DNA of 64,000 nt from an archaeon GW2011_AR15 (GCA_000830295.1 CP010425.1:35927-99926), one strand, 5' to 3'. Shown: positions 1,978 through 51,637, counted from the stretch's first letter. Notes: a model not told the origin generated them from the letters alone. Numbers and translations: made by a program.

Positions 1978-2562
1978 CTATGGCATCCACTTGGTGTCTT
2001 CCTTTCCCTGCCTGTGGCTGGCTAAACGGGCTGCTGTGAAAAGATAGTCTGAAAGCCTGTTCATGTATTTCAGGATGTTCTTTTCTATCTCCTCTTCCCT
2101 CATCAGCCTTATTATTTGTCTCTCCGCCCTCCTGCATACGACCCTTGCCATGTGAAGCAGTGCGCTTTCTTCAGTGCCTCCTGCAAGTATAAAATTCTTC
2201 AGCACAGGAAGCTCTTCCTCATACATGTCAATAAGCCTTTCAAGCTTCTTGACCATATCCTCTGTCACCCTTGGGATCTTGTTTGCCATCGGGTTTCCGT
2301 CTATCTTTGACTGTGAAAGCACAGAGGGGTATGCGAGATTTGAGGAGATTGCGTGCAGGTCTTTCTGTATATCCATAAGATGCGATTTAAGGTCCTCCTC
2401 TTCCAGCTTTACTATGGCAAGGCCCAAGAATGCATTGGTCTCGTCGAGCACTCCGTATGCCTCTACTCTCGTTGTATCCTTCAGTGTCCTTGAGCCGTCG
2501 CAGAGTGAAGTCTCTCCTGTATCCCCTCTTTTAGTGTAGATTTTTATCTTCCTATCTGCCAA
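1978..2562 (-). CDS. PduO-type ATP:cob(I)alamin adenosyltransferase
   Basis: The N-terminus KIYTKRGDTGETSL and the helical-bundle C-terminus are typical of the PduO/MMAB family. Confidence 0.8.
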   Translation of the reverse strand: MADRKIKIYTKRGDTGETSLCDGSRTLKDTTRVEAYGVLDETNAFLGLAIVKLEEEDLKSHLMDIQKDLHAISSNLAYPSVLSQSKIDGNPMANKIPRVTEDMVKKLERLIDMYEEELPVLKNFILAGGTEESALLHMARVVCRRAERQIIRLMREEEIEKNILKYMNRLSDYLFTAARLASHRQGKEDTKWMP

Positions 2563-4573
2563 TGTTTATCACCTGCTCGCTCAGGCTGCCTTCCCTGTAA
2601 ACTGTTATGCCCCTGCAGCCGAGCTCATATGCCAGCAGGAAGGATTTCTTTATGTCCTCGGTGGTTGAGCTCTTTTGGAAATTTATTGTCTTTGAGATTG
2701 CATTGTCGACATGCTTCTGGAAAACTGACTGCATCTTTATGTGCCACTCAGGCTTTATGTCATAGGCAGTCACAAATATCTTCTTCATATCCTCGGGAAG
2801 CGCAAGGTTCTCAAGCGAGTTTGACTGGATTATCTTCCTTATTATATCCTCTGAGAAATCAATGCCGTGCTCTTTTGAGACTTCCTCAAGCACCTTGTTC
2901 ACATGCGTTATCTCTGTGTTCCCAAGGACTTTCCTTGTATATCCGAGCGCAAAGTTGGGCTCTATCCCCGGAGAGGTGTCTGCAAGTATGCTCCTTGCTC
3001 CTGTAGGCGCGATTGCTATCAGCGAGCAGTTCCTCAGCTTTGCCTTGTTGCAGAATACGCTTTGCTTCCACATCGGGAAGACTCCTTTTTCCTCTGCCAG
3101 CTTCTCTGACTCATTCCTGGCTGTTGATGATATGAACTTCATGACCTTCTCAGCAACCGCAAGCCCCTCCTCGGAATTATAGGGAATCCTGAGTTTGTAG
3201 AGCATATCCGCAAATCCAAGCACTCCCAGCCCTATTCTTCTGTTGCCCTTGGCCATGTCCTCTATCTTTTTCACAGGGAACCTGCCAAGGTCGACTATAT
3301 TGTCCAAAAATCTTACAGAAGACCTTATGACTTTCTCGAGGTTCTTCCATCTTATCTGCTTCCTCAGCACGAACCTTGAAAGGTTTATTGCGCCGAGGTT
3401 CCCTGCGTCATAAGGAAGCAGGAGCTGGTCTCCGCACGGGTCGGTTGTTTCTATCTTCCCCATATCTGGGAAAGGATTTCCTTCATTTATCCTGTCTATG
3501 AAAAGCACTCCGGGGTCCCCTGTCTTCCATGCCATCGTAACAATGAGGTGGAATATGTTGTTGGCATCAGCCATCTCAATTACTTCGCCGGTTGCAGGGT
3601 TCTTTATTGCATATTCCTTCCTTTTCTTGACAGCTTCCATGAACTCGTCTGTCATCTCGACAGATATATTGAAGTTCTTTATTTCCCCCCTCTCTTTCAT
3701 AGTTATGAATTCTATTATGTCAGGGTGTTCCACGCTGAGCGAGCCCATGTTGGCAGGCTTCCTGTTTCCCGGGACAACTGTAAGGTCAGATGCATGGTCA
3801 AACAATTTTATGAATGCTATGGGCCCTGATGAAAATCCTGCTGTTGTCTCGAGCACCTGTCCTTTCGGCCTCAGCCTTGAAAATGAGAATCCTGTGCCTC
3901 CCCCCAGCCTCTGTATAAGGGCTTTGTCATAGAGTGCCCTGAAAATCCCTTTCATGCTGTCCTCAACAGGAATTACAAAGCTGCTGTAGAGCATCCTGTT
4001 TGATGTGCCTGCATTCGCAAGTATCCTTCCTGAAGGTATAAATTCAAGCGAAGACAATATTGTAAAGAAATCTTCCTCTATCTCCTCTGTCTGCTTCTCG
4101 CTTTTCTTATATTTCTTTTCTACAGAAGCGACTGCTTTTGCTACTCTCCTGAACATCTCTTTCGGCGTTTCAATGATATTGCTTTTCCTGTCCCTTGCCA
4201 GGTATCTGGATTTTGCTATCAGCAGCCCGTTCACGCTCAGCCTTGAGTCATCCATCCTGCCGAGTATGCTCTGTTTTAGTTTTCTTAATTCAGTCCTTTT
4301 CTGCCTGTAGAGGATGAATGCCTTTGCCATCTCAGACTGGCCGTTCTCCATAAGGACTTTCTCAACAATGTCCTGCACTTCCTCCACAGAGATGATGTGG
4401 CCGTCCTGGGCTTTCTTTTCTATCTCAAGGATGACTTTTCCGGCAATCATATCAGGGAGCTCCTGATTATCTATATTTACAGCCAGCATCGTCTTCTCTA
4501 TTGCAGAAGAAACCTTGGCAGGGTCAAAGTCTGCTATTGTCCCGTCCCTTTTCCTTATTTTAGAAATCCCCAT
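2552..4573 (-). CDS. nrdJ: class II (adenosylcobalamin-dependent) ribonucleotide reductase NrdJ, with N-terminal ATP-cone
   Basis: The N-terminal roughly 100 aa form an ATP-cone (KIRKRDGTIADFDPAKV...). The RNR barrel carries the motifs VIPVEDSM and PCGDQLL. The protein is 673 aa. Confidence 0.8.
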   Translation of the reverse strand: MGISKIRKRDGTIADFDPAKVSSAIEKTMLAVNIDNQELPDMIAGKVILEIEKKAQDGHIISVEEVQDIVEKVLMENGQSEMAKAFILYRQKRTELRKLKQSILGRMDDSRLSVNGLLIAKSRYLARDRKSNIIETPKEMFRRVAKAVASVEKKYKKSEKQTEEIEEDFFTILSSLEFIPSGRILANAGTSNRMLYSSFVIPVEDSMKGIFRALYDKALIQRLGGGTGFSFSRLRPKGQVLETTAGFSSGPIAFIKLFDHASDLTVVPGNRKPANMGSLSVEHPDIIEFITMKERGEIKNFNISVEMTDEFMEAVKKRKEYAIKNPATGEVIEMADANNIFHLIVTMAWKTGDPGVLFIDRINEGNPFPDMGKIETTDPCGDQLLLPYDAGNLGAINLSRFVLRKQIRWKNLEKVIRSSVRFLDNIVDLGRFPVKKIEDMAKGNRRIGLGVLGFADMLYKLRIPYNSEEGLAVAEKVMKFISSTARNESEKLAEEKGVFPMWKQSVFCNKAKLRNCSLIAIAPTGARSILADTSPGIEPNFALGYTRKVLGNTEITHVNKVLEEVSKEHGIDFSEDIIRKIIQSNSLENLALPEDMKKIFVTAYDIKPEWHIKMQSVFQKHVDNAISKTINFQKSSTTEDIKKSFLLAYELGCRGITVYREGSLSEQVINIGR

Positions 4574-4690: not shown

Positions 4691-6739
4691 CTATACAGTG
4701 CATACGCTGAAGCCGCAGTCCGGACATAGCACACACCCTTCCTGCTTGACAAGAGGCGCATCGCATTCCGGGCAGTTGGTCATCTGCTTTTTGTCGAAAC
4801 TCACCATGATTTTGCCTTCCGGCACCTTGTCATGCGCGGTTTTTCCTGACGATTCCACAACTATCACCTGTTCAGGCATCCCTTCAACTTCCAGCTCTTC
4901 TGTCTGGACAACTATTGTTTCCTCGGTCTCGACAACAACAGGCTCCGCTGAGCTCCTGGCCTCCTTCTTGACCTCTTTTATGTTCAGCACCTGGTTGCCC
5001 CTGCTTCCGTCCCTGTAGACTGTGCATCCCTTGCAGCCTGTCTTCCAGGCAAGCATGTATCCTTTCTTGACGTCATCTATGGTTGCGCTTGTGGCGAAAT
5101 TGATCGTCTTTGAGACTGCGTTTGTCACATATTTCTGGAATGCTGCCTGCATAAGTATGTGCTCCTCAGCTGATATGTTGAAAGAAACCTCAAACACTTT
5201 TTTCACATCTTCAGGGACTTCATCCAGGCCGTCAAGCGTTCCCTGCTCTGCAATCTTTTTCATAAGCTCTTCAGTATAGAATCCCCTTTCCCTGGCAACC
5301 CTCTCGAAGTGCTTATTCACGTAAGTGAACTGCTCTTTTATTGAATGGCTGTTCTTTATGTAGGCAAGGGCAAAGTTGGGCTCGCATCCTCCGCTTGTAT
5401 CCCCGACCATGCTGAGCGTCCCTGTCGGAGCAATTGCTGTTATGGCGCAGTTCCTAACTCTCCTGCCCTCTTTTTCAAATTCGCTGCCTTTCCATGCGGG
5501 AAAAACTTCCCTTTCCCTTGCAAGCTCTTCTGACATCTTCCAGCCTTCCTCATCAATAACTCTCATGACTTCTGAAGCCACCATCCTGCCTTCCTCGCTT
5601 GAATAGGGAAGCCCGAGCTGGTAGAGAAGGTCTGCAAATCCCAATACTCCAAGACCTATGCGCCTTGTCTTCTTGGCCATCCTGGTTATCTTCTCTGTAG
5701 GGTATTCCCCCGCATCTATGACATTGTCCAGGAAATGGATTGCTGTCCTGGTTGTCTTCCTGAGCTTATTCCAGTCAATCTCAATCCTGCCGTTGACTTT
5801 CCTGACCATCCTGTCAAGGTTTATTGAGCCGAGGTTGCATACCTCATAATCAAGAAGCCATATTTCCGCACAGGGATTTGTAGCCTTGAATAAGCCAATG
5901 TGCTTGATTTTATTGTGCCTGTTTGCTGTGTCTATGAAAAGCACGCCCGGCTCCCCTGTCTTCCAGGCGTGATATGCAATTTTGTTAAAGAGCTCTTTTG
6001 CCCTTACTGTTCTGGCAACCTGCATTGTGTGCGGATCTATGAGATCATACTCACCGTCAGCCTCGACTGCTTTCATGAATTTGTCGTCAAGCATGACTGA
6101 GATATTGAAATTTGTAAGCTGGGTAAGGTCATCCTTTGCTGTTATGAAATGCTCAATGTCAGGGTGGCTGATGTGGAATGTCCCCATCTGGGCCCCTCTC
6201 CTGTTGCCCTGCATTATTGTGCTGCACATTACATCAAATACCCTCATGAATGACAGTGGGCCTGAAGCAATCCCGCTGCATCCTGAAACCCATGAGCCGC
6301 CCGGCCTGAGTGTTGAGAAGCAGTATCCGACCCCGCCCCCCCTTTTCTGGATAAGCGCTGCCTCCTTGACTGCCTGGAATATGCCTTCCATGCTGTCCTC
6401 AACAGGGATTACAAAGCAGTTCGCAAGATTCTTTACAGGTGTGCCTGCATTTGCGATTGTCCTCCCGCCAGGGATGAACTCAAGCTTTGTAAGCATGTCA
6501 AGAAATTCTTTTTCTGTCTTTTCAACTTCCCCGTCTGGCCTGTACACTGCGTCCGGGCCTGCAATCTCCTTTGCTATTCTTTCGAACATGTCCAGAGGGG
6601 TCTCTACGACAGTCCCGTCTGCGTCCCTTTTCAGGTATTTTGCAAATATTATCCTAAGCTGGTTCTCGTTCAGCCCCAGTTTTTCTTCTTCACTGATGCT
6701 TTCCATAAATGTTTTGTAATCCTGCATTTTTCCGCTCAC
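4691..6739 (-). CDS. nrdJ: class II ribonucleotide reductase NrdJ paralogue, C-terminal zinc ribbon, no ATP-cone
   Basis: Clear paralogue of the upstream RNR (FVIPVEDSMEGIF, NPCAEIWL). It ends in CPECDAPLVKQEGCVLCPDCGFSVC. The protein is 682 aa. Confidence 0.8.
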   Translation of the reverse strand: MSGKMQDYKTFMESISEEEKLGLNENQLRIIFAKYLKRDADGTVVETPLDMFERIAKEIAGPDAVYRPDGEVEKTEKEFLDMLTKLEFIPGGRTIANAGTPVKNLANCFVIPVEDSMEGIFQAVKEAALIQKRGGGVGYCFSTLRPGGSWVSGCSGIASGPLSFMRVFDVMCSTIMQGNRRGAQMGTFHISHPDIEHFITAKDDLTQLTNFNISVMLDDKFMKAVEADGEYDLIDPHTMQVARTVRAKELFNKIAYHAWKTGEPGVLFIDTANRHNKIKHIGLFKATNPCAEIWLLDYEVCNLGSINLDRMVRKVNGRIEIDWNKLRKTTRTAIHFLDNVIDAGEYPTEKITRMAKKTRRIGLGVLGFADLLYQLGLPYSSEEGRMVASEVMRVIDEEGWKMSEELAREREVFPAWKGSEFEKEGRRVRNCAITAIAPTGTLSMVGDTSGGCEPNFALAYIKNSHSIKEQFTYVNKHFERVARERGFYTEELMKKIAEQGTLDGLDEVPEDVKKVFEVSFNISAEEHILMQAAFQKYVTNAVSKTINFATSATIDDVKKGYMLAWKTGCKGCTVYRDGSRGNQVLNIKEVKKEARSSAEPVVVETEETIVVQTEELEVEGMPEQVIVVESSGKTAHDKVPEGKIMVSFDKKQMTNCPECDAPLVKQEGCVLCPDCGFSVCTV

Positions 6740-12795: not shown

Positions 12796-13803
12796 CTAGA
12801 AGCCCGGTATGGGCTTCATGCCTGATCTCCTTCTTCCGAATTCTTTCTGCCTTATGTTTGAAATTGTTTCTGCCAGGTCCTCTTTTCTCCAGTTCGGCCT
12901 CTGGATGACGTCCCTGACAATAAGCTTCTTTATGAAATCGCAGAGTGAATCGGGAACATCAGCAGGGACTCTTCTCGTCAGCGGGTCGCCGCCAAGGGCA
13001 TACAGCATGGTCATCCCCAGGCTGTAAAAGTCTGACTCTGGGACAAGCGGCTTGCCTGATATCTGCTCAGGAGAGGCAAACATTGGTGTATATCCCTTGC
13101 TGGATGAATTCTCAGAAGGCCTTATCAGAGAAAGGCCGTAATCAACAAGCACAACCATGTGGGAGTCAGGCTGGACAATGAAGTTCTGGGGCTTCACATC
13201 GCCGTGCACAACACCGTTGTAATGAAGGTATTTCAGGGCATTAAGCGACCTTTCAGTTATCCATGCGACATTTTCAGGGTCCAGCTTCTTGTTTTTTTCT
13301 ATTATCCTGCCAAGAGTAGGGCCCGGGACATAGCTCATCACAAGCACAGGCGAGCCGTCCTCCAGTTTGAAAAAGTCCCTCATAGTAGGGATGCTGTAGT
13401 GCCTCAGGTCCCAGATGGATGCTGCCTCTTCCATCAGTATCCTCTCATCCTGCGGGGAAACATAATGGCCGTGCTTGAGGCATACGGGAGCGCCAAGCAT
13501 CACATGCTCCCCGTAATATGTTTTTCCAAATCCTCCGTCTGCAATTTCCTTTATCACCCTGTAATCTTTTATTATCTTGCCCTCTAGAGAAGACCTGTCC
13601 CTGTCATAATCTGCCCTGCTGGCAGGATTAAGCAGCGTGCCGCTTGCCTCATTGAGAAGCTGGGCAATATCGCCTTTCCCTTCATTTACATCAGGGTGGT
13701 AGAGCTTCATCAGGACTTTGTATGCTGCAGAAATAACCTCGGGCCTGGCTCTTGGGCTGACTTCCAGAACATCATAGTAGTTGACTTTTGTACCTGGTTT
13801 CAT
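12796..13803 (-). CDS. J-domain (DnaJ-like) fused to Hanks-type Ser/Thr protein kinase
   Basis: N-terminal J-domain signature YYDVLEVS...LYHPDVN. Kinase motifs GGFGKTY (the Gly-rich loop), a Lys in the VCLK context, HGDVKPQNF (the catalytic loop), and DYGLS plus SPE. The 13822-13824 codon is TTG, so the ATG at 13801-13803 is taken as start. Confidence 0.7.
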   Translation of the reverse strand: MKPGTKVNYYDVLEVSPRARPEVISAAYKVLMKLYHPDVNEGKGDIAQLLNEASGTLLNPASRADYDRDRSSLEGKIIKDYRVIKEIADGGFGKTYYGEHVMLGAPVCLKHGHYVSPQDERILMEEAASIWDLRHYSIPTMRDFFKLEDGSPVLVMSYVPGPTLGRIIEKNKKLDPENVAWITERSLNALKYLHYNGVVHGDVKPQNFIVQPDSHMVVLVDYGLSLIRPSENSSSKGYTPMFASPEQISGKPLVPESDFYSLGMTMLYALGGDPLTRRVPADVPDSLCDFIKKLIVRDVIQRPNWRKEDLAETISNIRQKEFGRRRSGMKPIPGF

Positions 13804-13912
13804 AGCATAATAGATGGAAAGCAAAAAATATATATTTAACGTACTTATTTAAAGTTTAATATGTTTTGTATATACTTAAGGTTTATTAAAAGAAAGCAAA
13901 ATCCCGGATATC

Positions 13913-23825: not shown

Positions 23826-24593
23826 ATGAGTCTGAAAAGGGGAATCATGGATGCGGGGTTTATAGTCCTGGATGACAAGGTCATGGGAATAAACCTTGGC
23901 TGGGATGCGGCTACTGAGCATGAAACTGGGATAAGAGAGTTAAGGAAATCATTCGGCATCGGGCTTGATGAAAAGCTTCTGGGCTATGAGGCAAGGAAAA
24001 ATACAGCAGTACCGAAAACTCTTTTTTACCATGAGGATGAGACAGCATCTCTTGTATTCGTTCCTTATTCTTCCATTAGCTCAATTGAAGAGGCATTGGG
24101 ATACATCCCAAAACTTTATGACGGGGAAGATCTTGCCACAGGATGGGAAAGCGATGCATTTGCAGTCAGGACTACATTAGAGCACGGCGCTGCTCTGAAA
24201 AATGTGTATGAGGCTTTCAGGAAAAAGAGCGGGATAATAATGCTCGGCAACAGGACAACGCCTTTTGCGAATCCCGGACTAATTCTTATGGACTACAGGA
24301 AAATACCTGAAGAATATCTTGAAAAAGCAAGGGAAATTGACAGGACACACAGGGAAGAACAGGCAAATTACAGGAGACTGGAAAAGGAAAGTGGAGTGTT
24401 TGAGCTTCTTGAGAAAGGAGGCAAAGAATATTTTGCCTTAAGCATAAGGGGTCTTGGCGAAAACGGAAAGCCAAGGTGGTGGCTGTACCCTGAGCAGCAG
24501 GATAGGTATGAAGCAGGGTGGTACTCTACAGAAGATTTAAAGCTGTGGGCAAAAAACAAGGGCCCTGTAATGAGAGAAGCGGACAGCAGGTAA
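23826..24593 (+). CDS. hypothetical protein
   Basis: 255-aa ORF with coding-like composition and no recognised motif. Confidence 0.35.
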   Translation: MSLKRGIMDAGFIVLDDKVMGINLGWDAATEHETGIRELRKSFGIGLDEKLLGYEARKNTAVPKTLFYHEDETASLVFVPYSSISSIEEALGYIPKLYDGEDLATGWESDAFAVRTTLEHGAALKNVYEAFRKKSGIIMLGNRTTPFANPGLILMDYRKIPEEYLEKAREIDRTHREEQANYRRLEKESGVFELLEKGGKEYFALSIRGLGENGKPRWWLYPEQQDRYEAGWYSTEDLKLWAKNKGPVMREADSR

Positions 24594-24643
24594 ATTCTTG
24601 CAATCACAAATTTAATAAAGGAATCCTGATAAGAAAAAAAGAG

Positions 24644-25114
24644 ATGGCATTAAAACAGAGAATAGAGATAATACGCTCCATCTATAAGCATAAGGAGGCG
24701 TTGCCGATTACAATTTTAGCGGGCTCCCTCATGGCTTTTGTGCTGTTCTATTTCACGTATTTCGAGCAGATATACTGGAGCATGGGAAAGCTGTATGCAT
24801 ATGCACAGGTCATTATCCAGATATTATTATCCGCGCTCTTCGGAATAAACATTGCGCTGCTATGGTTCAAGCTGAAATTTGCTGCTTCTGCTAATTCAGG
24901 AAAAGAGATAGGGAGCATAACAATAGCTTCAGTGATAAGCATCATTGTTTCAGGCTGCCCTGTGTGTGGGATAACTCTTGCGTATTATCTCGGAATAGCT
25001 TCAATATTCGCTTCATTCCCGCTGTACGGGCTTGAGCTGAAAATAATCGGGCTGCTGCTTTTACTTTATTCGACAAACCTGCTGGCAAAAGACCTTTACT
25101 CATGCAAAATCTAG
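24644..25114 (+). CDS. hypothetical membrane protein with CPVCG motif
   Basis: Four predicted TM helices. The start is taken at MALKQ. Confidence 0.35.
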   Translation: MALKQRIEIIRSIYKHKEALPITILAGSLMAFVLFYFTYFEQIYWSMGKLYAYAQVIIQILLSALFGINIALLWFKLKFAASANSGKEIGSITIASVISIIVSGCPVCGITLAYYLGIASIFASFPLYGLELKIIGLLLLLYSTNLLAKDLYSCKI

Positions 25115-25624
25115 AAAATTCCTTATAATCTTTTCATTCCTGACTTCGGGGTGGAACATTATGCCGCAGAGATTCTTTTTTTTGTGCTTCACTGCCTGGA
25201 CTGATTCTTCAGACTCTGCCAGCACATAAAATTCATTAAGGTTATCAACCCCGTTCCCGTGCAGGCTGTATGCTTCAAAGTTTCCTGAAAACAGCGGATT
25301 CTCCCTCAGTGTCTTTATTTTAGTCATGCCTATCTCTTTGTTTTCAGTGATTCGTGCGCCATAGAGCAAACATAGAATCTGCATGCCTGAACATATGCCA
25401 AGCACGGGAGAGATTGTTTCTTTTAGAAATAAAAAACCGTTAATATTTTTCAGATACTCATTATCTTTCAGTGCCGTGCCGCAAATAATTATTTTATCAT
25501 ATCCAGACACATCCTTGACATTTGTATAATGCTTTACATCACATTTCCCTGCAATCCCCACAATCGGTTTTACAAATTCCTCCTCGCTTAATTTGTCAGC
25601 GCAGGTGCTTACCACAAGTATCAT
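25100..25624 (-). CDS. class I glutamine amidotransferase (GATase1) subunit
   Basis: Catalytic triad context GICSGMQ and HPE near the C-terminus. 174 aa. Its start overlaps the stop of the upstream PP-loop gene. Confidence 0.65.
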   Translation of the reverse strand: MILVVSTCADKLSEEEFVKPIVGIAGKCDVKHYTNVKDVSGYDKIIICGTALKDNEYLKNINGFLFLKETISPVLGICSGMQILCLLYGARITENKEIGMTKIKTLRENPLFSGNFEAYSLHGNGVDNLNEFYVLAESEESVQAVKHKKKNLCGIMFHPEVRNEKIIRNFLDFA

Positions 25625-26295
25625 TCCAGCTCTGCCTCTTTTATTTCGAAAACACCGTGGTTGCCTGAAAATCTTGCGCTGCTTTTTTTCACATTAATTT
25701 TTTTCCTGAAAAAAGGCGCACTCAGTACAAAACTCTCAAATTCACCGCCCTCGCCTGCAGGGTTTATTTTGTATTTTTCCTTCAGCCCCGCCAGCTCTTT
25801 CACTGCTTTCCTGTCAAGTCTTTTTCCGAGCCATGACTCATCAAAGGGGTATGCTGCAACGCCCACTATTATTACTTCAAATTTATTTTTCAGCAGGTCA
25901 TCAAGAAGCTGCAGCTGGTCAAGCTGCCATAAAGGATTGAAGCACCACAGCCCGAGCTCGTCGCATATCTTCTGTATCCTTGCTGCCTGGTAGACTGACC
26001 CGATTGCGCCTGTGACAACACCCTCAATCCGGAAAAGCTCAACAGCTTTTTTTACTGCCTCCTTCAGGTCCGCCAGTTCTGCTTCTTTTTTCCCTTCTGT
26101 CTCCGCAACAATCAAGGGAAGCCCTGCTGCCTCTGCCTGCAGCTGCGTAATCCCTGTATTGGGAGTGTGGAACATGTAGCTCTCGGGATTTTTTGATTTT
26201 ATGGTAATAAGGCTCGCAATTTCATGAAGCTGCATTGCCCTGTATATTGCATACGCAGAATCCTTCCCGCCTGAGAACAAGCCTGCCAGTCTCAT
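25621..26295 (-). CDS. PP-loop ATP pyrophosphatase of the MJ0570 family (diphthine-ammonia ligase Dph6-like)
   Basis: SGGKDS P-loop at the N-terminus and AGEGGEFESFV. The start is trimmed to MRLAGLFSGGKDS (ATGA overlap with cbf5). Confidence 0.6.
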   Translation of the reverse strand: MRLAGLFSGGKDSAYAIYRAMQLHEIASLITIKSKNPESYMFHTPNTGITQLQAEAAGLPLIVAETEGKKEAELADLKEAVKKAVELFRIEGVVTGAIGSVYQAARIQKICDELGLWCFNPLWQLDQLQLLDDLLKNKFEVIIVGVAAYPFDESWLGKRLDRKAVKELAGLKEKYKINPAGEGGEFESFVLSAPFFRKKINVKKSSARFSGNHGVFEIKEAELE

Positions 26296-27275
26296 TTTAT
26301 CCTTGGATATGTGCCCGGCTCCATTATTACCTTGCCTGCTTCCACTGCCATGCCCTTTTCTCCCATCATCTCTTTTGAGGTAAAGATAGCTTTCCCGTAG
26401 CATACAAGCTCGTCTTTCAGTGTGAATACTGCGACCATCTCCCCCTGGCTTATCCCTGATTCCAGCTTTGCTATCCCGGGAACTGCAAGAGAGGCTCCGT
26501 GGCACAGGCTGTCAACAGTGGTGTCCATCACCCATACCTTCGGGAGATGCCTCACAGCCTCCTCAACAGGCCTGATAACCTTTCTTATGAATTTCTCATT
26601 GTGGTGCTTCTTGTAGTAATACCATGCATCGGCGACATCCTGCAGGGTAAACAGCCCTTCTTCGCTGAAAGGCCCTGCCCTTGTCCTTCTCAGCTCTGCC
26701 ATGTGCGCCCCGCACTTCAGCTCCTGTCCCATGTCATGCACCAGCTTCCTGATGTATGTCCCTGCCTGGCAGCCGACCCTGAAAAGCACGTCCTGCTTTT
26801 CCAGGCCAAGCACTTCAATATAGTATATCCTCCTCTCCCTCAGCTGCCTTTTCACAGAGCTTTTTATCGGGGGCAGCTGCTTTATTTTTCCTGTGAATTT
26901 TTCAAATGCCTGGTAAAGCTCGTATTCAGGGACTTCCCTGTGGAGGTGCATCAGGCAGACATATTCTTTTCCTGCATTCAGCAGCGTCTGGATCACTTTC
27001 GTGGCCTTGCTTACTGCAACAGGCAGCACTCCTGTGACATTGGGGTCAAGCGTGCCTGAGTGCCCTCCCTTTTTTACCCCGAGAATCTTCTGGAGATAAG
27101 CAGAAACCTGATGGCTTGTCGGGCCCGCAGGTTTATCTATATTTATTACCCCGAGATTGAGAAGCTGCTCTACTGTCCTTTTGCCGGGATAAACCCCGAA
27201 CTTGTCGCTTGTCTCTGAGTCCTTCCTTACAAGAATCTCCCTTTTATTCTTCTCAAAAGGCAGTGTCGTTTCCAT
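26292..27275 (-). CDS. cbf5: H/ACA RNP pseudouridine synthase Cbf5
   Basis: TruB catalytic motif GHSGTLDPNVTGVLPV and a PUA domain at the C-terminus. The protein is 327 aa. Confidence 0.85.
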   Translation of the reverse strand: METTLPFEKNKREILVRKDSETSDKFGVYPGKRTVEQLLNLGVINIDKPAGPTSHQVSAYLQKILGVKKGGHSGTLDPNVTGVLPVAVSKATKVIQTLLNAGKEYVCLMHLHREVPEYELYQAFEKFTGKIKQLPPIKSSVKRQLRERRIYYIEVLGLEKQDVLFRVGCQAGTYIRKLVHDMGQELKCGAHMAELRRTRAGPFSEEGLFTLQDVADAWYYYKKHHNEKFIRKVIRPVEEAVRHLPKVWVMDTTVDSLCHGASLAVPGIAKLESGISQGEMVAVFTLKDELVCYGKAIFTSKEMMGEKGMAVEAGKVIMEPGTYPRIK

Positions 27276-31312: not shown

Positions 31313-32239
<927 letters not shown>

Positions 32240-32240
32240 A

Positions 32241-32696
32241 ATGGCAGAAGAAAAAGTCGTGAAGATGGCTGTAACTGCGCTGAAAGAGGGTACTGTGATA
32301 GACCACGTACCTGCGGGCCAGGTTTTCAAGGTTGTTGATGTCATGAACCTCTATGAGTACAAGAAGGCGCTGAGGATCGGCATGTATCTTGACAGCAAAA
32401 CCTATGGAAAAAAAGATATCCTGAAGATTGAGGACAGGTATCTCACCCAGGACGAGGCCAATATGATTGCGCTAATAGCGCCGAATGCCACGATAAACAT
32501 AATCAAGGACTGGAAGGTCGCAAAGAAAATACAGGTCTCTGTCCCAGATGTTGTGACAGGGCTGAGGTGCGGCAACCCGAGATGCATAACAAGGTATGAT
32601 AAAATAAAGACCGTGTTCAGCGTGCTGGACAAAAAAACCCTGAAAGTAAGGTGCCACTACTGCGAGCATGTTTTCGGGAAAGAGGAAGTGATCTGA
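32241..32696 (+). CDS. pyrI: aspartate carbamoyltransferase regulatory subunit
   Basis: C-terminal zinc domain CGNPRC...CHYCEH. Lies immediately after pyrB. Confidence 0.85.
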   Translation: MAEEKVVKMAVTALKEGTVIDHVPAGQVFKVVDVMNLYEYKKALRIGMYLDSKTYGKKDILKIEDRYLTQDEANMIALIAPNATINIIKDWKVAKKIQVSVPDVVTGLRCGNPRCITRYDKIKTVFSVLDKKTLKVRCHYCEHVFGKEEVI

Positions 32697-33601
32697 TGAA
32701 AAAAGATTTCCTGAAGATGACCGACCTGACATCTCAGGAGCTGAAAGAAGTTATTGAGCTGGCTGTCCGGATAAAAAAAAATCCTGAGAAGTATTCCAAG
32801 AGTCTTTCCGGTAAAACTTTGCTGATGATTTTCGCCAAGCCTTCACTGAGGACAAGGGTGAGCTTTGAGACAGGCATGACAAAGTTAGGGGGGCATGCAA
32901 TATATTATGACATTGCGACTTCTCCTCTCGGCAGGGGCGAGACAATAGCTGATACTGCAAAGTGCTCTTCGCGCTATGTTGATATTATCTCTGCCAGGCT
33001 GTTTGAGCATGCTGATATTGTTGAACTGGCTAAGAATTCAGATGCCCCTGTCATAAACATGCTTACAAATCTTACACACCCGTGCCAGGGGCTTGCTGAT
33101 TTGATGACAATTAAGGAAAAGAAAGGAAAGCTGGAAGGGCTTAAGCTGGCATACCTGGGCGACGGGAACAATAATGTAACCCATTCTCTCCTGCTTGGCT
33201 GCGCTTTGAGCGGGATTAATATTTCTGTTGCAAGCCCCGAGGGAATGATGCCTGATGCTTCAATTGTTGCAGAGGCAAAGAAATTGGGAAAGGTTGTGAT
33301 TACGCATAATGCCGGGGAAGCGGCAAAAGACGCAGATGTCATTGTCACAGACACATGGATGAGCTACCACATCAGGCCCGAGAAAAAAGAAGAAAGGGTG
33401 AAAAAATTCAGGCCATACCAGGTCAATTCCAAGATAATGAAGCTGGCAAAGAAGGATGCCATTTTCATGCACTGCCTTCCTGCCTACAGGGATTATGAAG
33501 TAACTGCAGAGGTCATAGACGGCCCCCAGTCAGTTGTTTTTGACGAGGCAGAAAACAGGATGTGGACTGAGATGGCGCTTATGGTTGCACTGCTAAAATG
33601 A
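32696..33601 (+). CDS. ornithine-carbamoyltransferase-family enzyme with atypical substrate loop
   Basis: SLRTR, HPCQ, LGDGNNNVTHS and HCLPAY place it in the OTC-like clade. The canonical DxWxSMG loop reads TDTWMSYH. The ATG overlaps the pyrI stop by 1 nt. Confidence 0.65.
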   Translation: MKKDFLKMTDLTSQELKEVIELAVRIKKNPEKYSKSLSGKTLLMIFAKPSLRTRVSFETGMTKLGGHAIYYDIATSPLGRGETIADTAKCSSRYVDIISARLFEHADIVELAKNSDAPVINMLTNLTHPCQGLADLMTIKEKKGKLEGLKLAYLGDGNNNVTHSLLLGCALSGINISVASPEGMMPDASIVAEAKKLGKVVITHNAGEAAKDADVIVTDTWMSYHIRPEKKEERVKKFRPYQVNSKIMKLAKKDAIFMHCLPAYRDYEVTAEVIDGPQSVVFDEAENRMWTEMALMVALLK

Positions 33602-34818
33602 TAATAAAGGGCGGGAATGTTTTTCTTGACAGCAGGTTTGTTAAGAGGGATCTTTTTATTTCAGGGGAAAAGATAGTTTCTTCTTCATCCGGTGAAGTTA
33701 TAGATGCTTCAGGAAAATATGTTGTGCCCGGCCTGGTTGACATGCATGTACATTTCCGAGATTTTGGCGAGGAGCATAAGGAAGATTGGAGGAGCGGCTC
33801 TGAGGCTGCTCTTGCTGGAGGGATTACGACTGTGTTTGACATGCCCAACAATAAGGTTCCGATAACTTCTAAAAAGCTTTTAGATCAAAAGAGAGACAAA
33901 GTTTCTTCCAAAGCCCTTGTTGATTTTGAGCTATATATTTCTGTGAACAATTCCAATGTTGATGAGATTAATGAGAACAAAATTAAATTTGTCAAGCTGT
34001 ATTACGGCCATACAACAGGGGATAATAAGGTTGATGATGCCGGGGATATCTTCAAGAGAATCTCAAAGGATATTGTGATAGTTGTCCATGCCGAGGATAA
34101 CAGGGTGATGGAGGAGAACAGGAAGAAGTTTGATGTTTCAGAGAAGAGATATCATTCTCTGGTCAGGGATAATAAAGCAGAATACACTGCTGTAAAGGAT
34201 TTGATTGGGTTTGCTGAGAGGTATGGCAATAAACTGCATATTACCCATGTGAGCTGCAAGGAATCTGCTGAAATGATAAAAAATGCTAAGAAGAGAGGAG
34301 TTAAGGTTACCTGTGATACCTGTCCGCACTATCTTTTTTTAGATGATTCGCTTTATGATAAGATAGGGAACAGGGCAAAGGTAAACCCTGCCCTGAAGTC
34401 TGGAGAAGACAGAGAAGCATTGTGGAAATATCTGAATGACGGAACAATAGATTGTGTGTGTAGTGATCATGCGCCACATACATTGGAGGAGAAAAACAGG
34501 GATTATGAGAATTGCCCTTCCGGCTTTCCCGGAGTCGAGACAACACTGCCTTTAATGCTCACTGCTGTAAATGAGGGAAAGATAAAGCTTGAAGATTTTA
34601 TTCCAAAGATGACAACAGCGCCTGCAAAGATATTCGGCCTGGAGAGAAAAGGACAGCTTAAAGAAGGTTTTGATGCTGACGTTGTTATTATTGATTTGAA
34701 CAAGGAAGGAGCTATCTCCGGCAACAAATTGCAGACAAAGGTTAAGTGGAGTCCGTTTGAGGGGATGAAAACACAGGGGAGTAGCGTTAGAGTAATTATT
34801 ACTGACAAAGTATATTAG
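33598..34818 (+). CDS. pyrC: dihydroorotase
   Basis: Amidohydrolase metal motif DMHVHFR. 406 aa within the pyr cluster. Confidence 0.75.
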   Translation: MIIKGGNVFLDSRFVKRDLFISGEKIVSSSSGEVIDASGKYVVPGLVDMHVHFRDFGEEHKEDWRSGSEAALAGGITTVFDMPNNKVPITSKKLLDQKRDKVSSKALVDFELYISVNNSNVDEINENKIKFVKLYYGHTTGDNKVDDAGDIFKRISKDIVIVVHAEDNRVMEENRKKFDVSEKRYHSLVRDNKAEYTAVKDLIGFAERYGNKLHITHVSCKESAEMIKNAKKRGVKVTCDTCPHYLFLDDSLYDKIGNRAKVNPALKSGEDREALWKYLNDGTIDCVCSDHAPHTLEEKNRDYENCPSGFPGVETTLPLMLTAVNEGKIKLEDFIPKMTTAPAKIFGLERKGQLKEGFDADVVIIDLNKEGAISGNKLQTKVKWSPFEGMKTQGSSVRVIITDKVY

Positions 34819-34828
34819 AGCAAAACGG

Positions 34829-35383
34829 CTACGCAGTAATCCTGCTGTTTCTCAGAGCATTCTGGTACCAAGCTAGATTCGCACTAATGAGCTGGCTGTT
34901 TTGTTCCGATGGTAGCTTTAATACATCAACGCCATATTTCCCCAAAACATAAAACGCCCCTATATCAGCAACCAGTTCTTTTTCATCGTGAGAGCATTTT
35001 TCAAAATGCTCATATCCACTAAGTTCTATATCAAGTCCTTTCTGCTCTAGTTTTTCCTGGAGCAGATAGATTTGCCCTATCGCGTGCAGGACATGAGCCT
35101 GCTCATGCCCAAGCCTGTATAGGTTAGTTATGTTGCTGGCAGAATACTGGTAGAAAGCAATCCATATTGTATTATTGTCTAAAGTTAAAGACATAACTCT
35201 TGCCCCTGGTTTTTCATGCCTGTATTTTTCCAGCTCTTTCTCTATCCCTTCTTCAGAGCCCATCCACATTTTGTACACTTGTTTTGTAAACTCTGTGACA
35301 TCAGGGACAAAGCCAAGATCCAGATAAGCATGGTTCTCTCTCTGCACTGTTATTCCTAAAGCTGTCAGTTGAATATCAGTCAT
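34829..35383 (-). CDS. hypothetical protein with HExxH motif
   Basis: An HEQAH zinc-metallopeptidase-like motif lies inside GHEQAHVLHAIG. Confidence 0.35.
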   Translation of the reverse strand: MTDIQLTALGITVQRENHAYLDLGFVPDVTEFTKQVYKMWMGSEEGIEKELEKYRHEKPGARVMSLTLDNNTIWIAFYQYSASNITNLYRLGHEQAHVLHAIGQIYLLQEKLEQKGLDIELSGYEHFEKCSHDEKELVADIGAFYVLGKYGVDVLKLPSEQNSQLISANLAWYQNALRNSRITA

Positions 35384-35430
35384 AACCAGGCAAAAACAAC
35401 TGCAATTTATAAATATTATTGTTTTAGTTA

Positions 35431-36501
35431 CTACTCAGTACTAACATCTATCCCGACAGCCTCTCTGACATTCCTGAAGCCGTCCCTCTTCAGAAATCCC
35501 ACAATCCCTCTGTTTATGTTTTTAGCCATCATAGGCCCTTCATAAATAAACCCGGTATAGACCTGGACCAAAGAAGCGCCTGCCTTAATCTTCTCATAAG
35601 CATCCTCTGCTGTGAACACTCCGCCTACTCCGATAATAGGCAGCTTCCCTTTTGTCTTCTTATAGATATGCCTGATAAACTCTGTTGCTGTCCTTGTCAA
35701 TGGCCTGCCGCTCAACCCTCCGGCCTCATTTATTTTAGTCCTCAGCCCTTTCCTCGAAACTGTGCCGTTGACAGCTATCACGCCTGATATTTTTGTCTGC
35801 ATGCACACATCAACAAATTCATCCAGCTCTTCCCACGTCAGGTCAGGCGAGACCTTGACGAACAGGGGCTTATTCTTCCTGTTGGCCTTCTGCAGTGTTT
35901 TTATTATTTTCAATAAACTGCTCTTGTCCTGCAGCTTCCTCAGCCCCTGTGTATTAGGGGAGGAAACATTTATTGTCATGAAATCAGCAAAATCATAGAG
36001 CTTCTCATAGGTATAGAGATAATCCAAATAAGCCTCTTCAAGGGAGGTGTCTTTTGATTTCCCGATATTGAGCCCGACTATGAGCCTCTTATGTTTCACA
36101 GCTCTTAATTTCCCGGCTGCCCTGTCCGCGCCCATGTTGTTGAAGCCCATCCTGTTTATCAGGGCAAGGTCCTTCGGTAGCCTGAATATCCTCGGCTTCT
36201 CATTTCCCGGCTGCTCATTCCTTGTTATTGCGCCTACCTCAATGTGGCCGAAGCCAAGGGAGGGCATAATCTCTATCAGCCTGCATTCCTTGTCAAAGCC
36301 TGCAGCTATGCCCATGGGATTGTCAAACTTCATGCCTGCGACCTCTGTCCTCAGCATCGGATGGGAGTAGCCATAGAGTGATTTCAGCAGGCGTCTGGTC
36401 AGGGCAAATTTCCCGAAAAAAGAGAGTGAAGACGAGACAAAACCATGGATTTTTTCAGGGTCGGCTTTGAAAAGAATCGGCCTTATAATAGCTTTATACA
36501 T
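35431..36501 (-). CDS. pyrD: dihydroorotate dehydrogenase (class 2-like)
   Basis: DHOD barrel motifs GIAAGFDK, GFGHIEVG, NVSSPNT and GVGG. The start is trimmed to MYKAII. Confidence 0.8.
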   Translation of the reverse strand: MYKAIIRPILFKADPEKIHGFVSSSLSFFGKFALTRRLLKSLYGYSHPMLRTEVAGMKFDNPMGIAAGFDKECRLIEIMPSLGFGHIEVGAITRNEQPGNEKPRIFRLPKDLALINRMGFNNMGADRAAGKLRAVKHKRLIVGLNIGKSKDTSLEEAYLDYLYTYEKLYDFADFMTINVSSPNTQGLRKLQDKSSLLKIIKTLQKANRKNKPLFVKVSPDLTWEELDEFVDVCMQTKISGVIAVNGTVSRKGLRTKINEAGGLSGRPLTRTATEFIRHIYKKTKGKLPIIGVGGVFTAEDAYEKIKAGASLVQVYTGFIYEGPMMAKNINRGIVGFLKRDGFRNVREAVGIDVSTE

Positions 36502-36586
36502 GCTAAAATGATAATAAGCCCAAGGTAGTATATATAATTGATTGTTGGATAAAAAATATAAACTAAGGATTTTTACCTTATCCCAA

Positions 36587-37228
36587 ATGAAAGAGAGAGT
36601 CGCTGAGATACTTCTTAAGATAAAAGCTGTCGAGATATGCCCAAACAGCCCTTTCACGTACACATCAGGCATGATAAGCCCGATCTACATAGACAACAGG
36701 AAGATAATCTCCTATCCTGAAGAGAGAAGAAAGATACTTGAAGACCTGTGCGTCCTGATAGGCTCCCTCAATATAAAATTTGATGTGATTGCAGGAGTGG
36801 CGACAGCAGGCATACACTGGGCAGCATGGCTCTCAGAAAAATACAACAAGCCCATGGTATACATAAGGGACAGCGCAAAGGGCCATGGAAAGCAGAACCA
36901 GATCGAAGGCTATCTGGAAAAAGGAAAGAAAGTCCTTGTCATAGAGGACCACATAAGCACAGGCGGAAGCTCAATAGCTGCTGTGAAGGCTGTAAGGGAG
37001 TTTGGCTGCGAAGTGACTGACTGCATTGCAATAACAACATATGAATTCAGGGAAGCAAAGGAAAAATTTGATGAGGAAAAATGCGGCCTGCATACGCTGA
37101 CTGATTTCACGACCCTGATAAAGACAGCTGCTGAAAAGGGATATATCAGCAGTGAAGACGAGAAAAAAGTGCTGGAATGGAATAAATCCCCCCAGAAATG
37201 GGGAAAAAAGCACGGCTTTGAAAAATGA
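36587..37228 (+). CDS. pyrE: orotate phosphoribosyltransferase
   Basis: PRPP-binding motif VLVIEDHISTGGS. The start is taken at MKERV. Confidence 0.8.
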   Translation: MKERVAEILLKIKAVEICPNSPFTYTSGMISPIYIDNRKIISYPEERRKILEDLCVLIGSLNIKFDVIAGVATAGIHWAAWLSEKYNKPMVYIRDSAKGHGKQNQIEGYLEKGKKVLVIEDHISTGGSSIAAVKAVREFGCEVTDCIAITTYEFREAKEKFDEEKCGLHTLTDFTTLIKTAAEKGYISSEDEKKVLEWNKSPQKWGKKHGFEK

Positions 37229-39189: not shown

Positions 39190-39220
39190 TCAAGCACACA
39201 ATTAAAAAAAGTGGGCCTGA
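39190..39220. repeat. 31-bp direct repeat copy 2 (overlaps the genuine 3' end of tRNA-Ile)
   Basis: tcaagcacacaattaaaaaaagtgggcctga. It is 55 bp from copy 1. Confidence 0.7.
39204..39210 (-). terminator. oligo-T tract directly after tRNA-Ile
   Basis: T7 on the transcribed strand begins 2 nt after the discriminator base. Confidence 0.5.
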
Positions 39221-39315
39221 GCGGATTTGAACCGCCGACCAATGGCTTTCTTAGATAACATGTACCAATGGCGGTCATATAAGACCATCGCTCCACCAGG
39301 CTAAGCTACAGGCCC
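39212..39315 (-). tRNA. tRNA-Ile with anticodon UAU, containing a 30-nt canonical BHB intron (plus-strand 39248-39277) after position 37
   Basis: Folded by hand. Acceptor GGGCCTG/CAGGCCC; D-stem GCTT/GAGC; anticodon stem ATGGT/GCCAT; loop CTTATA|intron|A; T-arm GGCGG-TTCAAAT-CCGCT. Loop nt 32-35 (CTTA) pair perfectly with intron TAAG, giving 3-nt bulges at both splice sites. Confidence 0.65.
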
Positions 39316-48728: not shown

Positions 48729-49604
48729 ATGCAATCCGTAATTATGAAGCCCGAGTGGCTCAGGATAATGCCTCCAAAGGAAAAGTTCAGTGAGGTAAAA
48801 GGGATAATAAGCAGCCACAGGCTCAACACTGTCTGCCAGGAAGCGCACTGCCCAAATATGTCAGAGTGCTGGTCTTCTGGGACAGCAACATTCATGCTGA
48901 TGGGAGACACCTGCACAAGAGGATGCAGGTTCTGCGCTGTAAAGACAGGAAAGCCGGGAGAGCTTGACAGGACAGAGCCGGCGAGGCTGGCAAAGGCAAT
49001 AAAAGAGCTCGGGGTCTTTGATTATGTTGTGCTTACTTCTGTTGACCGCGATGACCTTGAAGACCAGGGCGCCAATCATCTTGCCGAATGCATAAGGGAA
49101 ATAAAAAAGCAGTATCCGGGGATTATTGTTGAAATCCTTATCCCTGATTTCAGGGGAGACAAAGAGCTTCTCAGAATTATAGCTGATGCCGGGCCTGAGG
49201 TAATTGCGCACAATGTTGAGACTGTTGAAAGGCTTCAGAGGAAAGTGAGGGATTACAGGGCAAACTACATGCAGTCATTGTCAGTTCTCCGGAATGTGAA
49301 AAAGCTCAGCAGAAAAATCTATACAAAAACTTCCATAATGCTCGGGCTTGGTGAAAAAGAGGATGAAGTAATCCAGGCAATGAAGGATTTAAGAGCCATT
49401 GATGTTAATATTATAACATTTGGGCAATACCTAAGACCATCACAGAAACATTTGGCAGTCAGCGAATATGTAAAGCCAGAAAAATTTAAATATTATGAAG
49501 AGGTTGCCAATAGCCTGGGGTTTTTATATTGCGCGTCTGGCCCTTTTGTAAGGAGCTCATATAAAGCAGGGGAATTATTTTTGAAGGGGAAAATAAATGG
49601 TTAA
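48729..49604 (+). CDS. lipA: lipoyl synthase
   Basis: CPNMSEC auxiliary-cluster motif, radical SAM CTRGCRFC, and KPEWL at the N-terminus. Confidence 0.9.
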   Translation: MQSVIMKPEWLRIMPPKEKFSEVKGIISSHRLNTVCQEAHCPNMSECWSSGTATFMLMGDTCTRGCRFCAVKTGKPGELDRTEPARLAKAIKELGVFDYVVLTSVDRDDLEDQGANHLAECIREIKKQYPGIIVEILIPDFRGDKELLRIIADAGPEVIAHNVETVERLQRKVRDYRANYMQSLSVLRNVKKLSRKIYTKTSIMLGLGEKEDEVIQAMKDLRAIDVNIITFGQYLRPSQKHLAVSEYVKPEKFKYYEEVANSLGFLYCASGPFVRSSYKAGELFLKGKING

Positions 49605-50661
49605 GAAAGTCATAGGGAAATTCGAGGTTGAATACCTGCAGGTTCTTGATGAGGAAGGCAATGCTGATGAGGCCCTCATGCCGAAGCTGACAGGCAGGCA
49701 GATAAAAGAGCTCTATGAAAACATGATCCTTGTCAGGACTTTTGATGACAAGGCTTTCTCAATGCAGAGACAGGGGAGGATAGGCTCATACCTCCAGGTA
49801 AAGGGGCAGGAAGCAGCACAGGTGGGCTCTGTCTATGCCCTACAGGACAAGGACTGGCTGTTCCCTATGTACAGGAGCAGTGGGGCATTGCTTGCAAGGA
49901 AGCAGCCCATGCATCTTCTCTATCTTTACTGGGGCGGAGATGAACGCGGTTTGAAAAGTCCGGAGAATGTGAATAATTTTCCCATTGCAATACCTGTCGG
50001 GACGCAGATACCTCATGCAGTAGGTGCTGCCTGGGCATCAAATCTCCTTGGAAAAAAAGAAGTCTCGCTGGTATTCTTCGGAGAAGGCGCAACATCAAAG
50101 GCAGATTTCCACACTGCAATGAATTTTGCAGGAGTCTATCAGGTTCCGTGCATTCTTGTCTGCGAGAACAACCAGTGGGCAATTTCTGTGCCGAGAAAAA
50201 TACAGACGCATTCAGAGACAATAGCACAGAAGGGAATTGCATACGGGGTTAAGGGAATCCAGGTCGACGGGAACGATATTTTTGCAGTCTACAAAGCAGT
50301 AAAAGAGGCTGTTGATGATGCAAGAGCAGGCAAAGGCCCTGCATTAATAGAGTGCATGACCTACAGGATAGGGGACCACAGCACAAGCGATGACGCAAAA
50401 AAATACAGGGGCGAAAAAGAAGTCGAGGAGTGGGCGAAAAAAGACCCTGTGCTCAGGCTTGAGAGATATATGAAAAAGAAAAAGCTGCTTGATGAAGCGT
50501 ATAAGAAAAAAGTCCTTGAGAATGCAAAAGAGACTGTTGAGAAAGAAGTGAAGAAATATGAGGAGTATCCTGCGCCTGACAGGGAAGATATCTTCAAGTA
50601 CACATTTGCGGAGATGCCGCAGCAGCTGAAAGAGCAGTTTGAGGAGTTCAAGAATGGTTAG
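49597..50661 (+). CDS. pdhA: 2-oxoacid (pyruvate) dehydrogenase E1 alpha subunit
   Basis: TPP-binding GDG...N region and a phosphorylation-loop-like YRIGDHSTSDD. Confidence 0.8.
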   Translation: MVKKVIGKFEVEYLQVLDEEGNADEALMPKLTGRQIKELYENMILVRTFDDKAFSMQRQGRIGSYLQVKGQEAAQVGSVYALQDKDWLFPMYRSSGALLARKQPMHLLYLYWGGDERGLKSPENVNNFPIAIPVGTQIPHAVGAAWASNLLGKKEVSLVFFGEGATSKADFHTAMNFAGVYQVPCILVCENNQWAISVPRKIQTHSETIAQKGIAYGVKGIQVDGNDIFAVYKAVKEAVDDARAGKGPALIECMTYRIGDHSTSDDAKKYRGEKEVEEWAKKDPVLRLERYMKKKKLLDEAYKKKVLENAKETVEKEVKKYEEYPAPDREDIFKYTFAEMPQQLKEQFEEFKNG

Positions 50662-51625: not shown

Positions 51626-51637
51626 TTGAAAAATAGA

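Follow-up and report, generated by a model that had tools for sequence, protein, structure and literature searches.

The genome of archaeon GW2011_AR15 (Woesearchaeota) carries three consecutive genes on the minus strand of a 64,000-nucleotide (nt) stretch (GCA_000830295.1, CP010425.1:35927-99926), which was analysed as a whole and is hereafter called the window. These genes encode the pseudouridine synthase Cbf5, a PP-loop ATPase of the MJ0570/DUF71 type corresponding to the diphthine-ammonia ligase Dph6, and a class-I glutamine amidotransferase (GATase) (Table 1). The present analysis concerns the last two, dph6 and the GATase gene, and the function that their pairing may serve. The public record of GW2011_AR15, a contig of 1.16 Mb, contains exact matches to all three proteins, in which the GATase is named 'Glutamine amidotransferase class-I', Dph6 is named 'hypothetical protein' or 'diphthine--ammonia ligase', and the third protein is named Cbf5, an identity that is unambiguous.

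A preliminary description of this DNA had stated that the three genes overlap each other's stop and start codons. Reading the sequence directly confirmed this arrangement, as an ATGA occurs at both junctions. A longer dph6 open reading frame (ORF) of 294 amino acids (aa), starting from GTG 26505, was rejected, its extension sitting within cbf5 in a different frame. Every member of the Dph6 family alignment begins M-[KR]-L-x-[VG]-L-F-SGGKDS and, because all homologues start at this motif, the 224-aa version is the real gene. At its 3' end, the GATase gene shares 15 nt with a convergent ORF encoding a hydrophobic protein, for which the family-model scans gave no match above noise.

Table 1. Genes and junctions of the dph6-GATase locus, followed by other features of the window. 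Positions are counted from the first nucleotide of the window.
Feature	Position	Strand	Description
cbf5	26292-27275	-	Pseudouridine synthase of the box H/ACA ribonucleoprotein; 327 aa; NF003280, 431 bits; AJF60938.1
dph6	25621-26295	-	Diphthine-ammonia ligase, MJ0570/DUF71 PP-loop ATP pyrophosphatase; 224 aa from ATG 26295; AJF60937.1
GATase gene	25100-25624	-	Class-I glutamine amidotransferase; 174 aa; PF00117; AJF60936.1
cbf5/dph6 junction	26292-26295	-	ATGA overlap of cbf5 stop TGA and dph6 start ATG; read from sequence
dph6/GATase junction	25621-25624	-	ATGA overlap of dph6 stop TGA and GATase start ATG; read from sequence; translational-coupling junction
Hydrophobic ORF	24518-25114	+	198 aa; convergent with the GATase gene
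Ribonucleotide reductase large-subunit ORF, first	2552-4573	-	673 aa; with ATP-cone
Ribonucleotide reductase large-subunit ORF, second	4691-6739	-	682 aa; no ATP-cone
DnaJ-kinase protein	12796-13824	-	342 aa; N-terminal DnaJ domain and Ser/Thr protein kinase domain
Pyrimidine-type cluster	31322-36672		
Aspartate/ornithine carbamoyltransferase-fold gene	31322-32239		Pyrimidine-type cluster
Aspartate/ornithine carbamoyltransferase-fold gene	32651-33601		Pyrimidine-type cluster
Amidohydrolase gene	33598-34818		Pyrimidine-type cluster
Dihydroorotate dehydrogenase gene	35431-36672		Pyrimidine-type cluster
tRNA	39212-39315	-	Rfam match, 104 nt, 54.3 bits; probably intron-containing
2-Oxoacid dehydrogenase E1 and E2 genes	49597-52846		
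Candidate polymorphic-toxin-type locus	57535-63290	+	1488-aa protein with RHS repeats, TcdB toxin mid/N region and FG-GAP repeats, then an overlapping 430-aa ORF

The PP-loop protein scored 283.8 bits against TIGR03679, the Dph6_archaeal equivalog model (cutoff 197.3), and 248.3 bits against PF01902 over positions 1-218 of 219, the latter being its sole Pfam match at E <= 0.01. Its SGGKDS (residues 8-13) and GEGGEFES (residues 181-188) motifs are invariant in the family alignments, and it aligned end to end with Pyrococcus PF0828 (3rjz/3rk1) and PH1257 (2d13), with about 50% identity and 197 bits. Two other DUF71-type NCBIfam models, each with a cutoff of 250 bits, gave scores of 67 and 59. 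Judged by these scores, the window protein is a true Dph6, orthologous to PF0828 and PH1257, and a member of the Dph6 subgroup rather than of DUF71-B12 or other paralogue groups. Furthermore, no GuaA-type family (e.g. PF00958) was found among its Pfam or NCBIfam matches. The protein is therefore not subunit B of a GMP synthase, and the Dph6-like assignment made in the preliminary description holds.

The GATase matched PF00117 with 59.5 bits (gathering threshold 22.8), and no NCBIfam model attained its cutoff on this protein. The best match, NF001975 (GuaA subunit A, or GuaAA), reached 70.8 bits against a cutoff of 198, and TIGR00888 reached 60.1 against 172; on these scores we rejected GMP synthase subunit A as its identity. 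A weak Pfam match to Peptidase_C26 (27 bits) covered only the generic triad region. In 31 diverse homologues, C78 (in LGICSGMQ), H158 and E160 (in FHPE) and G49 are invariant, as are E16 and P20, two family-specific residues located within an N-terminal L-S-E-x-E-F-V-x-P-I motif. With the Cys78/His158/Glu160 triad intact, the GATase looks catalytically competent.

A profile of the GATase family searched against 1.84 billion cluster representatives retrieved 253 clusters at E <= 1e-30. The best 150 clusters scored 159-263 bits, compared with 78.9 bits for the best solved GuaA subunit A. This separation in profile score indicates that the GATase is a distinct, widespread family of its own. The names given to its members in the source databases are generic ('GMP synthase-like glutamine amidotransferase', 'C26 family cysteine hydrolase', 'gamma-glutamyl-gamma-aminobutyrate hydrolase family', 'hypothetical'), and Joint Genome Institute (JGI) and some NCBI records label them 'GMP synthase (glutamine-hydrolysing)'.

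Conservation of the dph6-GATase adjacency was scored in two sets of loci. The GATase-selected set contained one genome per GTDB species and consisted of the best 80 of at least 422 relatives, of which 77 were usable as three loci had no upstream DNA. The Dph6-selected set consisted of the 80 best metagenome matches to the Dph6 alignment, 72 of which had at least 550 base pairs downstream. The metagenome-assembled genomes (MAGs) of the GATase-selected set are labelled Bathyarchaeia, Woesearchaeota, Poseidoniia/MGIII, Thermoplasmatota, Nanohalarchaeota, Aenigmatarchaeota, Heimdallarchaeota, Theionarchaea, Hydrothermarchaeota, Thermococci, Methanomicrobiales and 'Methanobacteriota', amounting to at least 12 labelled archaeal lineages in all.

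We observed dph6 upstream of the GATase gene, on the same strand and within 6 kb, at all 77 GATase-selected loci, and directly upstream at 74 of them. The three non-adjacent loci comprise one with an inserted gene (L001) and two with gaps of 1.7 and 3.4 kb (L006 and L067). At L001, in a Woesearchaeota MAG, a 176-aa P-loop kinase-like gene (5474-6004) lies between dph6 and the GATase gene with 4-nt overlaps on both sides, so that the operon stays intact. Starting from Dph6, the GATase gene was found directly downstream at 63 of the 72 loci. The two genes share a 4-nt ATGA or GTGA overlap at 65 of the 77 GATase-selected loci and in 58 of the 63 Dph6-selected pairs, one further pair being a single fused ORF. 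Summed over both sets, 123 of the 140 independent pairs, which represent many archaeal phyla, show the 4-nt overlap, and this recurrence of both adjacency and overlap shows that the pairing is more than chance. Therefore, the adjacency is not unique to GW2011_AR15, and elsewhere it mostly comes with the same ATGA overlap.

Clustering of the ORFs from the 80 genome loci revealed that no families other than Dph6 and the GATase are kept across phyla. The next commonest neighbour families occur at no more than 35 of the 80 loci and correspond to lineage-specific synteny; guaAB, dph2, dph5, elongation factor 2 (EF-2) and B12 transport or salvage genes were not among the conserved neighbours. cbf5 was located near the pair at a single one of the 80 GATase-selected loci (within 6 kb) and at none of the 80 Dph6-selected loci (within 3 kb). 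Cbf5, which the preliminary description had grouped with the pair, was thus rejected as a member of the module: cbf5 is a co-oriented operon neighbour local to the lineage of this genome and stands outside the conserved module.

Dph6 and the GATase also occur as natural fusions. Seven of the best 150 GATase profile matches are chains of 411-470 aa in which Pfam recognizes Diphthami_syn_2 at the N terminus and GATase at the C terminus, and more than 100 clusters (90% identity) of the same architecture were found among the matches listed in a search with one such fusion, P0130. The fusions originate from Methanothrix (including a 3.0-Mb single-contig genome), Aenigmarchaeota, Micrarchaeota, Woesearchaeota and Nanobdellota, and NCBI names them 'diphthine--ammonia ligase', 'TIGR00289 family protein' or 'GMP synthase subunit A'. 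Their two domains are joined by linkers of 16-67 residues, a length which argues that they are real fusions and not frameshift read-through of the ATGA junction. In an alignment of 86 fusions, the triad (C324/H404/E406) and an L-x-x-x-E-F-x-x-P motif show little or no variation. In rough neighbour-joining trees of either domain, the fused forms are spread over about five distinct clades, a rough indication that suggests repeated fusion or fission. We also found a triple fusion of 689 aa (P0371; L082, 4001-6070; GCA_964500685.1, CAZCOY010000059.1) that joins Dph6, a class-I GATase and a class-I S-adenosylmethionine (SAM)-dependent methyltransferase domain, the last being of the Methyltransf_11/25/31 type and not of the Dph5 fold.

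One alternative is that the GATase is a glutaminase of general or shared use, such as a divergent GuaAA or a TrpG/PabA-like protein, that sits beside dph6 by operon history only. TrpG and PabA offer a precedent for shared glutaminase subunits, GuaA subunit A is the nearest characterized relative of the GATase in both sequence and fold, and the JGI and NCBI labels cited above agree with such a role. However, the GATase scores far below the GuaAA cutoff and belongs to a family whose best clusters score at least twice as high as true GuaAA. Furthermore, dph6 is near the gene at every sampled locus with upstream DNA and guaAB at none, the 4-nt overlap is kept across phyla, and covalent fusion to Dph6 has been observed repeatedly. 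Given this evidence, we regard a shared glutaminase as very unlikely.

The structures of two fusions from different clades were predicted using AlphaFold2 and the 86-sequence alignment. The models reached predicted local distance difference test (pLDDT) scores of 94.9 for P0130 and 94.5 for P0355, a Woesearchaeota fusion, with a predicted template modelling (pTM) score of 0.93 for both. Such a pTM score in chains that link domains of about 225 and 180 residues indicates confident relative placement of the domains, and the fusions are accordingly predicted to be compact two-domain proteins with a fixed interface. A Foldseek comparison with the Protein Data Bank (PDB) matched the N-terminal domain to PH1257/PF0828 with a TM-score, normalised to target length, of 0.95 and a root-mean-square deviation of 1.2 A, and the C-terminal domain to GuaA subunit A structures with a TM-score, normalised in the same way, of 0.75-0.80. 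No solved chain spanning both domains was found in this comparison.

These models also bear on the possibility that the two genes are only co-regulated, in which case Dph6 would use free ammonia and the GATase-fold protein would be an unrelated hydrolase, for instance a C26-type gamma-glutamyl hydrolase, or have a structural or regulatory role. The Peptidase_C26 match and the C26 and gamma-glutamyl-gamma-aminobutyrate hydrolase names used by NCBI are compatible with this view, as is the fact that Dph6 of cultured archaea works without such a neighbour. Conversely, PF00117 scores above the C26 match, and both the glutamine-binding motif G-x-C-x-G-x-Q and the triad are invariant, which argues that the GATase is not a pseudoenzyme. 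A GATase combined with a PP-loop enzyme is, moreover, an established amidotransferase design, as in GuaA, and the confident packing predicted for the domains in the modelled fusions points to a functional interface. We consider mere co-regulation highly improbable.

A further alternative retains a glutamine-dependent pair but assigns it another substrate, the DUF71 protein having been neofunctionalized to amidate a different carboxylate, such as a cofactor intermediate, as has been proposed for the DUF71-B12 subgroup. The DUF71 family is not isofunctional (PMC3541065), neither the window nor the related loci place dph2, dph5 or EF-2 near the pair, and the triple fusion brings in a SAM methyltransferase domain. 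Nevertheless, the window protein passes the Dph6_archaeal equivalog model and stays far below the cutoffs of the two other DUF71-type models, and the proteins to which it is about 50% identical, PF0828 and PH1257, are of the Dph6 subgroup. In addition, B12 transport or salvage genes are not conserved neighbours, and dph genes are generally unclustered anyway (PMC3541065). Another substrate thus appears to have only a slight chance of being the right explanation.

With these alternatives weighed, we propose that dph6 and the GATase gene encode the two subunits of a glutamine-hydrolysing diphthamide synthetase, that is, a diphthine amidotransferase, a reading that has strong comparative-genomic support and to which we assign a probability of roughly 80%. 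The mechanism is modelled on split GMP synthase and on further GATase/PP-loop amidotransferases; the complex of separate subunits, the use of glutamine, the channelling of ammonia and diphthine-EF-2 as the substrate are inferred. Dph6 would bind ATP and adenylate the carboxylate of diphthine on EF-2. The GATase would hydrolyse glutamine through a thioester at Cys78, with His158 and Glu160 as its partners in the triad and Gly49 placed at the oxyanion hole. The nascent ammonia would then pass from the GATase to the Dph6 active site and attack the acyl-adenylate, yielding diphthamide, AMP and pyrophosphate. The 4-nt overlap of stop and start codons would couple translation of the subunits, and this coupling, or the joining of the subunits in one chain seen in several lineages, would secure 1:1 assembly.

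Several observations weigh against a glutamine-dependent diphthamide synthetase. Yeast Dph6 is active with ammonium in vitro. At nine of the 72 Dph6-selected loci the GATase gene is not nearby and unrelated genes lie downstream of dph6; at these loci (L087, L097, L105, L109, L112, L127, L142, L147 and L156), whose Dph6 is 53-61% identical to the window protein, no GATase gene was found within 0.7-3 kb downstream. Likewise, no GATase was found among the genes flanking dph6 in P. horikoshii (PH1257), T. kodakarensis and Methanocaldococcus indicus, which indicates that the partner is not universally required. Other genes take up the 4-nt overlap with the dph6 stop codon in two of these species, namely a TRAM-domain tRNA U54-type methyltransferase gene in P. 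horikoshii (L163, 3681-4913) and a gene for an FAD-binding flavoprotein in M. indicus (L165, 3666-5258). Furthermore, the two AlphaFold2 predictions used essentially one alignment and are not independent. Finally, dph2, dph5 and EF-2 were not found among the approximately 35 ORFs scanned in the window; their absence weighs little, since archaeal dph genes do not as a rule cluster (PMC3541065).

The closest known parallel is the archaeal two-subunit GMP synthase GuaAA/GuaAB, in which a free-standing class-I GATase of about 180 aa likewise serves a PP-loop adenylating enzyme. Examples are known from M. jannaschii and from P. horikoshii (PH1346/PH1347). The expected chemistry is also alike, as an oxygen is adenylated and AMP is then displaced by glutamine-derived ammonia, and by both sequence and fold GuaAA is the solved protein closest to the GATase. 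In contrast to GuaAB, the synthetase described here belongs to MJ0570/DUF71 (PF01902) and not to the GuaA ATPPase family, and it would act on a carboxylate borne by a protein, that of diphthine on EF-2, instead of on xanthosine monophosphate. The GATase differs from GuaAA by its score below the GuaAA cutoff and by its own N-terminal motif, and the Dph6 fusions run from synthetase to GATase, the reverse of the domain order in fused GuaA. The same modular logic is found in other GATase/PP-loop amidotransferases, including GAT-QueC of Crenarchaeota, glutamine-dependent NAD+ synthetase and asparagine synthetase B. These enzymes use other PP-loop families and act on small-molecule or tRNA substrates; to our knowledge, none of them acts on a protein side chain.

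The characterized Dph6 proteins (EC 6.3.1.14; yeast YLR143W, PF0828 and PH1257) are orthologous to the window protein and share its motifs, but they are described as using ammonia, and the dph6 genes of cultured Thermococcales and Methanocaldococcus have no GATase neighbour. Eukaryotic Dph6 has two C-terminal RidA/YjgF domains instead (PMC3541065, PMC3585130), and these RidA-type domains were found to be essential in yeast by Uthman et al. in 2013 (PMC3585130). In 2012, de Crecy-Lagard et al. proposed that ammonia may be supplied by the eukaryotic RidA domains and, in a few archaea, by AsnB fused to the N terminus of DUF71, the hosts of these AsnB (GAT-II)-DUF71 fusions being Methanohalophilus, Methanosalsum and Nanosalinarum (PMC3541065). 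As in the pair described here, a glutamine amidotransferase attached to Dph6 could thus supply ammonia for diphthamide. However, the AsnB fusions combine a class-II (N-terminal nucleophile, Ntn) glutamine amidotransferase with a second PP-loop domain, lie N-terminal to DUF71 and occur in few species, whereas the GATase is an unrelated class-I (triad) enzyme, encoded downstream of dph6 or fused C-terminally, in many phyla.

Later work describes archaeal diphthamide synthesis as consisting of Dph2, Dph5 and Dph6 only (PMC6143161, PMC8305020), and the assignment of archaeal Dph6 is still bioinformatic (PMC8305020). A class-I GATase partner is mentioned neither in PMC3541065 nor in PMC3585130. The silence of the 2012 DUF71 study, which used cultured genomes, is probably explained by the lack of a GATase neighbour in P. 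horikoshii, T. kodakarensis and M. indicus. We found no published description of a class-I partner of Dph6 in the full-text literature, a search that left out most subscription-journal papers, so that an earlier account may exist. The dedicated glutaminase partner put forward in the preliminary description gains support from the conserved pair, the more than 100 clusters of fusions and the pTM score of 0.93, although the idea of supplying Dph6 from glutamine itself dates from 2012. What is new is the specific class-I partner family, which the databases do not recognize, and with it the application of a familiar design, a glutaminase plus a PP-loop synthetase, to a step so far assumed to draw on free ammonia.

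Elsewhere in the window, the region encoding the RHS-repeat protein resembles a locus of the polymorphic-toxin type, here in a member of DPANN, the superphylum of archaea with small genomes. The 430-aa ORF that follows had no Pfam match, and GC content falls to 0.33 at 62-64 kb. The two ribonucleotide reductase large-subunit ORFs are arranged in tandem. ARAGORN predicted no tRNA across the whole window, and the single tRNA listed in Table 1 was obtained with Rfam.

Diphthamide on EF-2 is common to archaea and eukaryotes, and among the steps of its synthesis the final one waited longest for its enzyme to be assigned. The source of its amide nitrogen has so far been a matter of speculation, based on RidA domains and AsnB fusions. 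Our analysis suggests that many archaea, including Bathyarchaeia, several DPANN groups, Poseidoniia and other Thermoplasmatota, some Heimdallarchaeota and, in fused form, Methanothrix, probably use glutamine and not free ammonia as the physiological amide donor, through an unnamed class-I glutaminase docked on Dph6. Diphthine-EF-2 can be prepared in vitro with Pyrococcus Dph2 and Dph5, which makes the prediction of a glutamine donor simple to test. If it is true, the enzyme of these lineages would be a glutamine-hydrolysing diphthine amidotransferase of the EC 6.3.5 type instead of EC 6.3.1.14, and the archaeal pathway, now given as Dph2, Dph5 and Dph6, would gain an extra subunit. Hundreds of proteins that now go by the names 'GMP synthase-like', 'C26 hydrolase' or 'hypothetical' would have their annotation corrected, as would the 'diphthine--ammonia ligase' fusions. 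Furthermore, a protein side chain would be an unusual target for a glutamine amidotransferase, and the pair would provide a testable model of why eukaryotic Dph6 requires extra domains.

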